From Candidatus Azambacteria bacterium (lineage in GTDB: Bacteria; Patescibacteriota; Minisyncoccia; GWC2-36-17; M10-OD1-4): DNA of 58,681 nucleotides. The notes below the pieces were generated by a model, which searched no databases, had not been told where the DNA came from, and saw only the letters and a list, made by a program, of their open reading frames with translations. Numbering within the stretch: the first letter of the stretch is position 1; each line of letters opens with the position of its first letter. Location of the stretch: NCBI GenBank assembly GCA_027048495.1, contig JALTWS010000019.1:1-58681 (forward strand). Reading direction: 5' to 3'. The position numbers and the translations under genes were made by a program. Below, one piece after another: positions 46,239 to 58,600 of the stretch.

Positions 46239-46649
46239 AAAACAGATCAAGGCAAAAAGCGCAATCGCCTGAGCTTTTTTAAAAAAGCAGGGGAGGAAAG
46301 TCCGGACACCTATTTTCGCTTTTTGCGAAATAAACGCAGCGGCTAACGGCCGTCGCACTAGCAGTCAGGCACTAGTTGCTGGTTGCTGGTGTAGAGGTGC
46401 GAACAGAGACGCCACGAGCCGAAAGGCAAGTGGGCTCCAACTTGGAGTAGTCCTTGTGGCAACACAAGGGGTGAAACGGCTAAATCCTTGCGGGGTGCAA
46501 GACAGTATCCTGGCGCCTTTTGTTTTTACAAAAAAGGTGCTGGGGGTGGTCGCATGAGCTTGCCAGTAATGGCAAGCCAAGATAAATGATTGCGGCTTTG
46601 CGTCAGCAAAGTACAGAATCCGGCTTACATTTTTGTCTTGATCTGTTTT
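46239..46649 (+). ncRNA. rnpB: RNase P RNA
   Basis: GAGGAAAGTCCGG...ACAGAATCCGGCTTA signatures; P1 aaacagatcaaggcaaaa/ttttgtcttgatctgttt. Confidence 0.96.
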
Positions 46650-53800: not shown

Positions 53801-55489
53801 GTGATTAGAAATTTCTTAAACAAAGAATATAAATTTGTTATATCAGCCGCTTTGATGATCGGCTTTTTTTCTTTGCTTTCCAGAGTGCTTGGGCTTTTAA
53901 GAAATAGAATCTTTGCTGATAAGTTTGGAGCTGGTGAGGAAATGGATATGTATTTTGCCGCGTTTAGACTGCCTGATTTTGTATATAACATATTTGTAGT
54001 TGGTTTGGTAACAATAGTTTTTATACCTGTTTTTTTAAAATACAAACAAAGATCTGAAAAAGAGGCTCTTTATCTTACTAATTTGGTTTTGAATGTATTT
54101 TTTGGATTAGTGGTTTTGGTGTGTGCTTTAATGTTTGTTTTTGCTTCAAAAATTATTCCTTTTTTTGTGTTTGGGTTTTCTGAGCAGAACATACAAACTA
54201 CTATAACATTGACCAGAATTATGCTTTTAAGCCCGATAATTTTAGGTGCATCAAGCATATTAATAAGCTTTCTGCAAGCAAACAAAAGATTTATGTCGTT
54301 TGCTCTTGCTCCTGTTCTTTACAATATTGGTATAATTTTTGGCGCTTTGTTTTTTGTTGATAAATTTGGAGTTTTGGGGCTTGCTTTTGGAGTGGTTTTG
54401 GGAGCTTTTTTGCATTTTTTGATCCAAATTCCTCCAACAATAAAGTTAGGATTTAAATACAGTCCAAAATTTGATATTTCCCATCCTGCATTAAAAGAGA
54501 TGTTTTTTTTAGCTCTGCCAAGGCTAATAGGGATTTTTGCTTATCAGGCTAATTTTATTGTTATAACAGCAATAGGATCGTCGCTTGCTTCAGGAAGCAT
54601 ATCTGTGTTTAATTATGCAAATGACCTGCAGTATATCCCCATAGGGATATTTGCCATATCTTTTGTAACAGCAGTTTTTCCTGCTCTATCAGAAAGTTAT
54701 GCCAAAAAAGATATAAAAGGATTTTTGGATAAATTTTACACAACTACAAATCAGATATTATTTTTGGTTATTCCAATGTCTGTGTTTTTAATTTTAGAAA
54801 GAGCGCAAATTGTTCGTGTTGTTTTGGGAACAGGGGAGTTTGGTTGGGTTGATACTCGTCTTACTGCCGCCGCTTTGGGACTTTTTGCTTTATCTATTTT
54901 TTCTCAAAGTTTGGTTCCGCTTTTTTCAAGGGCGTTTTTTGCCATGGGAAACTCAAAGACTCCAGTTTTTATAAATGTATCTTCTTTGGTTTTGAATATA
55001 TTTTTAAGTTTTTATTTTGTAAATCTTTTGAAAAGTGGAGGATGGTTTGCGGCTAATTTTGCTGAAGTTCTAAAGGTCGCTGATATTCCTGACATTTCTG
55101 TTTTGGGGCTTCCTCTGGCATTTTCAGTAGCTTCCATTATAAATCTTTTGTGGCTTTATTTTGCTTTATCAAACAAGATAGAAGAGTTTTCTTCAAGCAA
55201 AATATTGTTTTCTGTCAATAGAATAAATATAGCTGTTTTAGCTATGGGTGCTGCAATTTATCCTATGCTTTATTTTATGGCAAATACAGTTAATATGCAT
55301 ACTTTTTGGGGAATATTTTTGCAGGGAGCGGTTGCGTTTTTTGTTGGATTTTTTGTTTACCTTTTTGTAGCTTATCTTTTAAAAATTCCAGCATTTTTTG
55401 CTTTTTGGGAGGCGCTTACTTTGCCAATAAAAAAGATGTTTCTTTCAAAAACATATTCAGCAGAAGTTAATGGGTCGGATAAATTATGA
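53801..55489 (+). CDS. murJ: Lipid II flippase MurJ
   Basis: SRVLGLLR, AAFRLPD, APVLYN; many TM helices. Confidence 0.93.
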   Translation: MIRNFLNKEYKFVISAALMIGFFSLLSRVLGLLRNRIFADKFGAGEEMDMYFAAFRLPDFVYNIFVVGLVTIVFIPVFLKYKQRSEKEALYLTNLVLNVFFGLVVLVCALMFVFASKIIPFFVFGFSEQNIQTTITLTRIMLLSPIILGASSILISFLQANKRFMSFALAPVLYNIGIIFGALFFVDKFGVLGLAFGVVLGAFLHFLIQIPPTIKLGFKYSPKFDISHPALKEMFFLALPRLIGIFAYQANFIVITAIGSSLASGSISVFNYANDLQYIPIGIFAISFVTAVFPALSESYAKKDIKGFLDKFYTTTNQILFLVIPMSVFLILERAQIVRVVLGTGEFGWVDTRLTAAALGLFALSIFSQSLVPLFSRAFFAMGNSKTPVFINVSSLVLNIFLSFYFVNLLKSGGWFAANFAEVLKVADIPDISVLGLPLAFSVASIINLLWLYFALSNKIEEFSSSKILFSVNRINIAVLAMGAAIYPMLYFMANTVNMHTFWGIFLQGAVAFFVGFFVYLFVAYLLKIPAFFAFWEALTLPIKKMFLSKTYSAEVNGSDKL

Positions 55490-55593: not shown

Positions 55594-55683
55594 AAGTTGG
55601 TTTGTGTAATGGTATAATTGACTTTGCTTTGAAAAAGTGCTTTTATTTTTATGGTTTTGCTCATTTACAAAAAGGAGGAGTTT

Positions 55684-56175
55684 ATGTTTTTTTCTATTGA
55701 TAGTTGGTTGGTTAACATGCATGAGAGGCTTGCATCTGAGTTTCAGGCAAAAACAAAAAAAGACTGCTTTTTTTTGGCTAGATTTTGCTTGTTGTTTTCG
55801 TTGGTTTGCTTTTTTGTTTCAATGGTTTATCTTAGCGGTTCTTTTTTGAAAGCTTTAATATATTCTTTGTTTGTTATGTTTATTGGACTTTCTGCTTGGA
55901 ATGATGTTTCTCGCTCAGAAAAACAGGCAAAACAAGAGATTGGGTATATGAACAAAAACAAAAAAGATTTGTTTTTTGCAAGAGTCTTTTTGCTTTGTTT
56001 TTTTGCATACGTGTCAGTTGTTCTTTATCTTTTTTCGGAGCTTGAAGTTTTTTTGGTTTTGTGCTTTTTTATGTATATTTCCAGCATATATTTTGCATCT
56101 TGTGATATGTTTCCTCCAAAGCAAAAAAAGCAAGCAAAAATTCAGTATTTTGCTTTCAAAACAACAACCGTATAA
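55684..56175 (+). CDS. Hypothetical membrane protein
   Basis: AAGGAGGAG SD; about 4 TM segments. Confidence 0.7.
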   Translation: MFFSIDSWLVNMHERLASEFQAKTKKDCFFLARFCLLFSLVCFFVSMVYLSGSFLKALIYSLFVMFIGLSAWNDVSRSEKQAKQEIGYMNKNKKDLFFARVFLLCFFAYVSVVLYLFSELEVFLVLCFFMYISSIYFASCDMFPPKQKKQAKIQYFAFKTTTV

Positions 56176-56176
56176 T

Positions 56177-56214
56177 AAAACCCCCAAAGCCTGTTGGCTT
56201 TGGGGGAGTTTTTT
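56177..56214. terminator. Bidirectional terminator
   Basis: cccccaaagcc/ggctttggggg between convergent genes. Confidence 0.8.
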
Positions 56215-56392
56215 ACTTTTTTTCTTTGTCCTTTATTTCTTCTCTTACTATTTTTACATTGGGGGGAGCTTTTATTGATATTCTTGCGCTGTTTTTTTGA
56301 ATTTTTACCACTGTTACTATGATTTCATTTTCTCCTTCTCCAATGATGATGCTTTCACCCGGTCTTCTTGTAAGAACTAAAAATCCACTCAT
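56213..56392 (-). CDS. csrA: Carbon storage regulator CsrA/RsmA homolog (59 aa, not in ORF track)
   Basis: MSGFLVLTRRPGESIIIGEGENEIIVTVVKIQKNSARISIKAPPNVKIVREEIKDKEKK matches CsrA pattern L.LTR..GE.I.IG...V.V......RI.I.AP..V.I.REE; SD AAGGAGGA. Confidence 0.9.
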   Translation of the reverse strand: MSGFLVLTRRPGESIIIGEGENEIIVTVVKIQKNSARISIKAPPNVKIVREEIKDKEKK

Positions 56393-56506
56393 TGGATTTA
56401 TCCTCCTTGGATTTGATTTGCCACATTAGATTATAATAGCAAAACATTAGTGTTAATGTTGACATATTTTGTTTTTTATGTTAGAAAAATTTAAGTTGTT
56501 CATTTC

Positions 56507-56705
56507 TCGGAAAGGTGATGCTGGCAGTTTTTGCAGGACGGATGCAGGATGCGAGTATGTCTGTTTTTGCGAGCTCTTAGGCTTGCATAAGAGAGCAATT
56601 ATTAATCCTCTTATTTTAAAGACCAGGGGCTAAAATCCCTGGCTGCTCTCCGGACAGAGGCGCCTGCAGGCGCTGTAAGAACAAAAGCATTGCCTTTCCG
56701 AACCA
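56507..56705 (+). ncRNA. Candidate multi-helix ncRNA divergent from csrA
   Basis: 16-bp and 10-bp long-range helices with G-U pairs, several inner hairpins, TTGACA upstream, terminator downstream. Confidence 0.65.
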
Positions 56706-56711
56706 AATTTC

Positions 56712-56750
56712 AAAACCTCGCTTGCTAAAGAAGCGGGGTTTTTCTTTTTT
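56712..56750 (+). terminator. Intrinsic terminator
   Basis: aaaacctcgctt/aagcggggtttt plus T-run. Confidence 0.8.
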
Positions 56751-56794
56751 TGGTCTTTGTTTTTTGTAAAATTTATGTATAATCAATCATAAAT

Positions 56795-58600
56795 ATGAAC
56801 GAAAAAGACAAGCAAAATTTAATAAGAAACTTTTGTATTATAGCTCACATTGATCACGGAAAATCTACGCTTTCTGACAGATTGCTTGAGGAGACAAAAA
56901 CGATTGAAAAAAGAAAGATGCAGGATCAGCTTTTGGATACCATGAGTTTGGAAAGGGAAAGGGGGATAACAATAAAAATGCAGCCGGTGGTTATGAATTA
57001 CAAGCACAAAGATGGCAAAGAATACATTTTAAATTTAATAGACACCCCCGGGCATGTTGATTTTTCTTATGAGGTTTCCCGTTCGCTTGCGGCAGTTGAA
57101 GGAGCAGTTTTGCTTGTTGATGCAACCAAAGGTATGCAGGCGCAAACCCTTGCGGTGCTTGAGCAGGCGCAAAAGCAAAACTTAAAGATACTTCCTGCTG
57201 TAAACAAAATTGACTTGCCAAATGCAATGCCAGAAAAAGTAAAAGAAGAGATAGCAAATTTTCTTAATATAGATAAAAATGATGTTTTGGAAATATCGGG
57301 AAAAACTGGAAAAGGAGTGCCTTTGCTTTTAGAAAAAATAATAAGCGAGATTCCAGCTCCCAAAGGCAATCCAAATTCTCCGCTTAAAGCGCTTATTTTT
57401 GACTCTGTTTTTGATTCTTTTAAGGGTGTAATAGCAAATGTTAGGATAGTGGACGGTTTTGTAAAAAGGCATGATAAAATAAAGTCTATGATTTTAAAGT
57501 CAGAAGCCGAAGTTTTAGAGTGTGGAGTATTTAAGCCAGATTTAATTGAAAAGCCAGAACTTTTAACAGGGCAGATAGGGTATATTGCAACTGGACTTAA
57601 AGAAATAGACAAGGTAAGGGTGGGAGATACTATAACACTAAAAAACAATCCGGCAGAAAAAAACCTTCCCGGATATAAAGAAGTTCAACCTGTTGTTTTT
57701 GCTTCTTTTTTTCCGCAGGATGCTGACGATTATGATCTTTTAAGAGACGGTCTTTTGAAGCTTAGGCTGAATGACTCTTCTTTGTCTTTTGAGCCGGAAC
57801 AGTCCGAAGCTTTTGGCAGGGGTTTTCGTTGTGGTTTTTTGGGCATGTTGCATATGGACATTGTAAGAGAAAGATTAAAAAGAGAACATAACATAGAACC
57901 GCTAATAACTATACCCTCAGTATCTTACAGTATATTGCTAAAAAATGGAGAAGAGAGGCTGGTTTATTCTCCGTCTCAGATGCCTGATCCTGCAAATATA
58001 AAAGAAAGCAGGGAGCCTTATGTAAAGCTTGAGATAATGACAAAAAGCGAATATCTGGGGTCTATTATGACTCTTTTGGATAAAGTTCGCGGAGTTTATA
58101 AAGACACACAATATTTAACTGAAGAAAAAGTTTTGCTTGTTTATGAAGCTCCTTTGTCTGAGATTATCGTTGATTTTTTTGATGATTTAAAGTCGGTAAC
58201 CTCAGGATACGCTTCTTTAAATTATGAGCTTTTAGGTTTTAAGCCTGCTGAGCTTGTAAAAATGGATATACTGGTCGCAGGGGAAAGAGTGGAGGCGCTT
58301 TCAAGGATTGTAGTAAAAAGCAAGGCTCAAGAGATTGGAAGAATGATGGTGTCAAAACTAAAAGATATAATACCAAGGCAGCTTTTTGCTGTGTCTTTGC
58401 AGGCTGCGGTTGGATCAAAAATACTGGCAAGAGAAGATATATCTGCCCTAAGAAAAGATGTAACTGGATATCTTTATGGTGGAGATGTAACCAGAAAAAA
58501 GAAGCTTTTGGAAAAGCAAAAAAAAGGAAAAAAGAAAATGAAACAAAGAGGAAAAGTAAATATTCCACCAGAAGTTTATTTTAAGGTTTTGAAAAAATAA
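56795..58600 (+). CDS. lepA: Elongation factor 4
   Basis: IRNFCIIAHIDHGKSTL, GFRCGFLGMLH, YGGDVTRKKKLLEKQK. Confidence 0.99.
   Translation: MNEKDKQNLIRNFCIIAHIDHGKSTLSDRLLEETKTIEKRKMQDQLLDTMSLERERGITIKMQPVVMNYKHKDGKEYILNLIDTPGHVDFSYEVSRSLAAVEGAVLLVDATKGMQAQTLAVLEQAQKQNLKILPAVNKIDLPNAMPEKVKEEIANFLNIDKNDVLEISGKTGKGVPLLLEKIISEIPAPKGNPNSPLKALIFDSVFDSFKGVIANVRIVDGFVKRHDKIKSMILKSEAEVLECGVFKPDLIEKPELLTGQIGYIATGLKEIDKVRVGDTITLKNNPAEKNLPGYKEVQPVVFASFFPQDADDYDLLRDGLLKLRLNDSSLSFEPEQSEAFGRGFRCGFLGMLHMDIVRERLKREHNIEPLITIPSVSYSILLKNGEERLVYSPSQMPDPANIKESREPYVKLEIMTKSEYLGSIMTLLDKVRGVYKDTQYLTEEKVLLVYEAPLSEIIVDFFDDLKSVTSGYASLNYELLGFKPAELVKMDILVAGERVEALSRIVVKSKAQEIGRMMVSKLKDIIPRQLFAVSLQAAVGSKILAREDISALRKDVTGYLYGGDVTRKKKLLEKQKKGKKKMKQRGKVNIPPEVYFKVLKK

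Follow-up and report, generated by a model that had tools for sequence, protein, structure and literature searches.

The window, by which we mean the whole stretch of 58,681 nucleotides analysed here, belongs to contig C19 (JALTWS010000019.1) of a Candidatus Azambacteria genome of 803 kb with 33 % G+C and a completeness of 98.6 %; the genomes of its relatives all have sizes between 0.4 and 1.9 Mb. Three sequencing runs hold this stretch, all from one study and labelled hydrothermal vent metagenome. None of the three is an RNA data set, and one is possibly the source of the DNA itself. Near its end the window carries a structured RNA element between csrA and lepA, in the following setting:

53801-55489, + strand: murJ-like open reading frame
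55651-56175, + strand: open reading frame of 525 nt for a membrane-like protein of 174 amino acids
56181-56206, both strands: bidirectional terminator
56213-56392, - strand: csrA, 59 amino acids, divergent from the element
56462 to 56433, - strand: promoter-like site of csrA, back to back with the -35 of the RNA
56459-56487, + strand: putative promoter of the RNA, found by eye (-35 TTGACA at 56459-56464, spacer of 17 nt, TG at 56479-80, -10 TAGAAA at 56482-56487)
56507-56701, + strand: structured RNA element
56712-56752, + strand: intrinsic terminator that ends the RNA, with a stem of 12 pairs (56712-56742) and a T run behind it
56776-56783, + strand: extended -10 of lepA, TGTATAAT, 11 nt before the ATG, downstream of the terminator and outside the RNA unit
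56795-58600, + strand: lepA, with its ATG at 56795

The family set used for comparison consisted of the host genome (G000) and three genomes of a sister genus (G001, G002 and G003), and the interval between murJ and lepA is different in each of the four. Neither a reverse transcriptase nor IscB/TnpB nor an IS110 recombinase is encoded among the neighbours (csrA, the 174-amino-acid membrane-like protein, murJ, lepA). Retron ncRNA, omega RNA and bridge RNA were rejected as identities on the absence of such an adjacent partner gene.

The + strand of 56507-56701 folds with a minimum free energy (MFE) of -91.8 kcal/mol (z -6.68), and none of 200 dinucleotide shuffles was as stable. The - strand of the same region reaches -67.2 kcal/mol (z -3.23), and this deficit of 24.6 kcal/mol supports the + strand as the RNA strand, which the initial annotation had chosen on account of the G.U pairs. 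P1 and P2 together contain four of these, two each, and those in P1 form a tandem U.G/G.U. Both helices exist as described in that annotation, and all of their pairs are standard. The MFE fold is a rod of about 43 bp (P1-P4) capped by a three-way junction, with the following parts, all on the + strand:

56507-56522 / 56686-56701: P1, 16 of 16 pairs standard, two of them G.U
56527-56536 / 56673-56682: P2, 10 of 10 pairs standard, two of them G.U
56537-56552: purine-rich internal loops with the 5' strands of P3 and P3b (MFE fold)
56539-40 / 56671-72: CG/CG mini-helix of 2 bp, flanked by GA, GA and GG (MFE fold)
56543-48 / 56663-68: P3 (MFE fold)
56550-52 / 56660-62: P3b (MFE fold)
56553-56557 opposite 56657-59: internal loop, GAGUA opposite GAG, just below P4 (MFE fold)
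56558-56563 / 56651-56656: P4, 6 bp (MFE fold)
56568-75 / 56580-87: hairpin A, 8 bp with the loop CUUA, first arm of the junction (MFE fold)
56591-56650: P5 domain with a 7-bp stem (56591-97 / 56644-50) and an A/U-rich 5' internal loop
56623-29 / 56636-42: apical hairpin of the P5 domain, CCAGGGG (MFE fold)

From the 5' side, the junction consists of a U-rich linker, hairpin A, the trinucleotide UAA and the P5 domain, which abuts the 3' strand of P4 with a linker of 0 nt. Rod and three-way junction are kept in the ten best of the 1272 suboptimal folds within 4 kcal/mol. The loop GAGUA/GAG presumably resembles the recurrent loop-E or bulged-G module. A multi-branch arrangement, in which P1 and P2 enclose five hairpins, had been proposed before. 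One of these hairpins, CCAGGG/CCCUGG, is present (56623-28 / 56637-42), and the segments of the other four (GACGGA/UCUGUU, CUCUUA/UAAGAG, CUCU/AGAG and GCGCC/GGCGC) exist as well. Their multi-branch architecture is disfavoured: at -67.0 kcal/mol the five-hairpin fold lies 24.8 kcal/mol above the MFE, and the last base of GCGCC/GGCGC clashes with P2. In the MFE fold the segments of these four pair across the molecule and extend the rod as P3, P3b and P4.

The putative promoter was absent from a consensus scan because the last base of its -10 is not T; judged from its position, transcription of the RNA would start near 56494. The terminator behind P1, pointed out in the initial annotation, proved to be an intrinsic one. 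With a probability somewhat better than even, 56494-56752 on the + strand is a self-contained small RNA gene made up of promoter, structured RNA of about 200 nt and intrinsic terminator. A position upstream of lepA on the same strand, together with an end in a terminator, is also what a leader or attenuator controlling read-through into lepA would display, and such a function had been suggested for the element. However, the terminator ends the RNA and is followed by a promoter of lepA itself, whose extended -10 TGTATAAT block stands between terminator and ATG in all four family genomes, and two of these, G001 and G002, possess lepA without any such RNA upstream. Since P1 with its 16 bp does not overlap with the terminator stem, an antiterminator alternative is not apparent. 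An attenuator of lepA is very improbable, because lepA has its own extended -10 past the terminator, common to the family genomes. Between 56776 and 56797 a Shine-Dalgarno sequence is missing, with the same arrangement in G001-G003; as the ATG follows the extended -10 after no more than 11 nt, the lepA mRNA is probably leaderless or nearly so. From a fold of such stability and strand preference, framed by transcription signals, we infer a stand-alone small RNA with its own transcription, acting in trans rather than on lepA.

A comparison of the window with Rfam 15 at gathering thresholds had RNase P RNA (46249-46643) as sole match. For 56380-56800, a search at E<=10 retrieved 15 matches, all of them far below the thresholds (best 20.7 bits versus 49) and most of them covering the terminator. 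The statement of the initial annotation that the fold matches neither tRNA nor SRP RNA, tmRNA or 6S RNA was thus borne out, and the RNA has no known family. ARAGORN recognized no tRNA or tmRNA gene in the window, and the tmRNA and 5S rRNA of the genome are located on other contigs. The ACCA following P1 is present at 56702-56705 and is probably a chance occurrence, because the candidate counterpart in G003, described below, has none. With these observations a tRNA or tmRNA identity was rejected. In the literature on SRP and 6S RNAs and on structured RNAs of the phylum, including PMC8321541, nothing on this RNA was found.

With 6S RNA the element has in common a rod of about 200 nt, ends paired in a long closing stem and a stand-alone gene with promoter and terminator. 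A structurally atypical 6S-like RNA binding the RNA polymerase holoenzyme would agree with the size (~195 nt), the rod shape and the transcription signals of its own; furthermore, a canonical 6S RNA was not found elsewhere in the genome. The 6S family keeps shape and structure rather than sequence. Among 61 genomes of the class, a 6S match was obtained for two, one of them above the cut-off, and with so few matches the 6S RNAs of the class may escape the model. The 6S RNA over the Rfam cut-off (G028, L039:1501-1671, 52 bits) lies downstream of an ndk-like gene; the second genome has a weak match and the remainder none. Against such an identity, RF00013 had no match at E<=10, neither on 56380-56800 nor genome-wide, and the two-sided central bubble of 6S RNAs is absent from the MFE fold and from the ten best of the 1272 suboptimal folds. 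The element has a three-way junction in its place, with a 3' junction strand of 0 nt, and a short apical domain that in G003 consists of only a 7-bp stem. The RNA is also absent at this locus from two of the three sister-genus genomes, and we consider a 6S-like function improbable.

Bacterial SRP RNA (4.5S; RF00169 and RF01854) is likewise built as an elongated, hairpin-like rod whose termini pair and leave a short single-stranded 3' tail. The element shares this plan, its 5' end pairing with its 3' end and ACCA coming next, and a search of the whole genome with both models gave no SRP RNA. A divergent, 4.5S-like SRP RNA is nevertheless exceedingly improbable. Scans for helix-8 motifs yielded nothing convincing, the element has neither helix-8 loops nor the tetraloop, and it was not found in G001 or G002. 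Moreover, searches of the genome for Ffh and FtsY found neither, in contrast to 391 bits for SecY. A further comparison concerns the packaging RNA of phi29-type phages, in which a helix of the 5' and 3' ends is joined to a U-rich three-way junction with two stem-loops. The likeness is one of shape alone; the rod of the element is much longer, a phage context is missing, Rfam gave no match and no complementary loop pair was seen.

The signal recognition pathway of these bacteria deserves a remark of its own. In the host genome the ffh model (TIGR00959) retrieved a P-loop match of 16 bits and the ftsY model one of 17 bits, compared to 391 bits for the SecY control, and the motif DTAGR is absent from all six frames. 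In the class, ffh was detected in 0 of 41 genomes, with positive controls in 14 of 14, the small SRP RNA in 0 of 61 and the large SRP RNA in 0 of 1. Hence Ffh, FtsY and SRP RNA are not detectable in the host, nor are Ffh and SRP RNA in its relatives. No paper on an absence of the SRP pathway in this lineage was found, and this non-detection may matter more broadly than the RNA does. For 6S RNA (2/61) and SRP RNA (0/61) the standard models mostly fail in the class.

The neighbour csrA starts 115 nt from the element on the other strand. CsrA was found in one of 61 class genomes, the host alone; across the phylum it was found in 35 of the 401 genomes sampled, with identities of at most 56 %. Its nearest public relatives, among them proteins from planctomycete and deltaproteobacterial metagenome-assembled genomes, are at most 58 % identical over a full-length match. 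Owing to this distribution and distance, csrA was probably acquired horizontally by this genome. By eye, the key RNA-binding residues are present in the 59-amino-acid product. An RNA that arrived together with csrA as a module and titrates or otherwise controls CsrA, in the manner of CsrB or RsmZ, would account for the divergent neighbourhood with promoter-like sites back to back, which is the only real argument for this link, for the restriction of CsrA to the host within the class, and for the lack of both csrA and RNA at the locus in G001 and G002. Like the CsrB/RsmZ-type RNAs, the element is a stand-alone structured small RNA in a genome encoding CsrA, here even adjacent, and it contains one CAGGAUG (56545-51), which we take to resemble the CsrA site consensus, with three GGA within 14 nt. 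But GGA is not enriched, with five occurrences versus 3.5 expected and 25 % of shuffles reaching five. None of them lies in a hairpin loop, either in the MFE fold or in the ensemble, and two have both G paired. Known CsrA sponges string short hairpins together and do not form a single long rod, and no CsrB, CsrC or Rsm family of Rfam matched. In 56 loci of CsrA relatives (at most 58 % identical) the covariance model of the element had no match beside csrA, and in 20 of these, which were checked, a comparable long-range inverted repeat was not seen. The closest CsrA relative (L101) has an inverted repeat on its upstream side, which was rejected as an ordinary multi-branch fold without strand preference. 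Finally, a possible counterpart of the RNA exists in G003, a genome in which the query with CsrA had no match. A CsrA-linked function is therefore unlikely, and the independence from CsrA assumed in the initial annotation is favoured by the unenriched GGA and by the situation in G003.

The element is single-copy in the 803-kb genome, with other matches being words of at most 21 nt, and a search for extended complementarity elsewhere in the genome gave nothing. BLASTN of the RNA region against 60 relatives gave noise from the AT-rich flanks alone; as a control, the RNase P RNA of the genome was found by the same means in two of three same-family genomes. A covariance model built on the single sequence had no match in 100 relatives nor in a second set of five, a weak negative, because the same filtered search missed the match in G003 that an unfiltered search does find. 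BLAST against phages and plasmids and a scan with viral patterns returned nothing. In the regions upstream of lepA of 40 relatives, three of them from the same family, nothing alike was seen in the 39 besides G003, and the lepA loci of G001-G003 were without an Rfam match. A remnant of the 3' end of P1 in G001 as scar of a deletion was considered and dropped, as the case is ambiguous and MAFFT favours another register. A second strain, represented by run X2 of the same study, differs at 13 positions in 55600-57000. Ten of these are in the 174-amino-acid open reading frame, one is at 56454 just upstream of the -35, one in lepA, and one in the 195-nt core, at position 56526 of the loop that separates P1 from P2. 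These numbers are small, and the distribution is compatible with constraint on the RNA.

The element could also lack a function as RNA: it might be an inverted repeat with a role at the DNA level, what is left of a mobile element, or junk at an intergenic hot spot of variation that separates murJ from lepA. In favour of this reading, each of the four family genomes has a different interval here, perfect palindromic repeats are abundant in the genome, and significant sequence conservation was not seen beyond this species; an inverted repeat of this length, with few imperfections, could also act as DNA or be in decay. Several properties speak against it. The element occurs once, its helices tolerate G.U and not the A.C of the opposite strand, it has bulges and internal loops and is not a perfect palindrome, and promoter-like and terminator signals flank it. 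A MITE or insertion-sequence remnant in particular was rejected, with one copy in the genome and no target-site duplication seen in the flanks. On balance a non-functional origin has a low probability. The palindromic repeats form a family with a ...CTCACGATCGTGAG... core, are often paired and occupy many intergenic regions of the host genome, e.g.:

C17:17754-17913, C46:27708-27867 and C28:27176-27335: palindromic repeat sites
C16:61359-61518, C27:12393-12552 and C11:46245-46404: palindromic repeat sites

Another arrangement, an inverted array of GGAAAT-type units of about 11 nt, forms a hairpin of about 40 bp at C11:25660-25900.

The sister-genus genome G003 carries an RNA at L043:1087-1260 (+) which, like the element, lies between murJ and lepA, upstream of lepA and in the same orientation. 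The whole unit, L043:1009-1290, appears as a stand-alone one, with a leader of about 45 nt, a rod-plus-junction RNA and a terminator, and has no match in Rfam. Its promoter, TTGACA-16-TGnTATAAT, agrees with the consensus at 12 of 12 positions. The core between promoter and terminator folds with -59.9 kcal/mol (z -4.3), and for 1085-1262 a value of -52.9 kcal/mol compares with -45.0 on the other strand. Independent MFE folds of the RNAs of the host (G000) and G003 give the following picture:

Segmented rod: about 43 bp in G000, 39 bp in G003
Internal loop directly below P4: GAGUA / GAG in G000, AGUA / GAAAA in G003
P4: 6 bp in both, with different letters
5' junction strand: U-rich in both
Linker before P5: 3 nt in G000, 1 nt in G003
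P5: 7 bp in both, starting with GAGA and ending with UCUC
P5 to the 3' strand of P4, which begins with CG: no linker in either

In addition, a GG-CG-G / GA-CG arrangement in the G003 RNA is similar to the loops around the CG mini-helix of the host RNA, while the letters of the helices and the apical loops differ. With filters off, the best full-length match of the G000 model in the three family loci was the G003 RNA (15.5 bits, E ~0.004), and on the reverse strand of this RNA the model had no match at E<=10; the score itself is no better than that of plain terminator hairpins against P1 alone. Forty-four pairs could be aligned between the two RNAs: 18 are the same in both, 21 differ on both sides, three differ on one side and two are broken, leaving 42 standard pairs, a count that leans towards structure because the alignment was fitted to the model. 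The similarity in primary sequence is at chance level (local z 0.5; 288 of 1000 shuffles as high). A reciprocal model built on the G003 RNA did not recover the host RNA in the window at E<=1, with unrelated hairpins scoring 10-20 bits, and BLASTN with the G003 RNA found nothing in its congeners G001 and G002. A strict pattern of the shared motifs retrieved from 401 class genomes the RNAs of G000 and G003 and three false positives without a rod, compared to one match for the reversed control; with a loose pattern, the matches equalled those of its reversed control. We regard the G003 RNA as fairly probably homologous to the element, a relationship that is not statistically established. If it holds, the RNA would be older than the insertion of csrA, and G001 and G002 would have lost it or carry something else in its place.

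The element is thus probably a lineage-restricted, independently transcribed structured small RNA. In the proposed mechanism, the promoter near 56459-56487 would drive an RNA of the + strand that ends at the intrinsic terminator and folds as an imperfect rod with purine-rich internal loops, a three-way junction, a short hairpin and the P5 stem-loop. The RNA may then bind a protein, as scaffold or decoy. This candidate role is a guess and more tentative than the gene itself; the recognition sites would be the AGUA/GAG loop, the GA-CG-GA/GG-CG loop and the junction. Recognition by a protein is favoured over base-pairing with mRNAs, because the shape and the internal loops recur in the G003 candidate and the helix letters and apical loops do not, and because no extended complementarity was found in the genome. 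A farther-reaching and rather doubtful proposal regards the element as the first representative of a rapidly evolving family of regulatory RNAs, with rod and three-way junction, in small, AT-rich and apparently SRP-less bacteria. Such a family would keep the shape and two internal-loop modules, one of them loop-E-like, and would capture a protein. Candidates are RNA polymerase, for which the RNA would be an architecturally new counterpart of 6S RNA, or a GTPase of translation such as the adjacent LepA. Of the new ncRNA class contemplated in the initial annotation, the novelty is possible, with no match in Rfam, and the class would rest on one genome and one uncertain relative. As a lineage-specific bacterial small RNA the element belongs to a broad known kind and is not a demonstrated new class.

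Altogether the finding is modest, a single locus to which one uncertain relative can be added. The element is real, is probably functional as a small RNA and represents a family not described before, with members in one species, a near-identical strain and possibly the relative in G003. Very little is known about the regulatory RNAs of uncultured bacteria with tiny genomes, and the element, beside a csrA that was probably acquired horizontally, gives expression mapping and binding tests a concrete target in this lineage.
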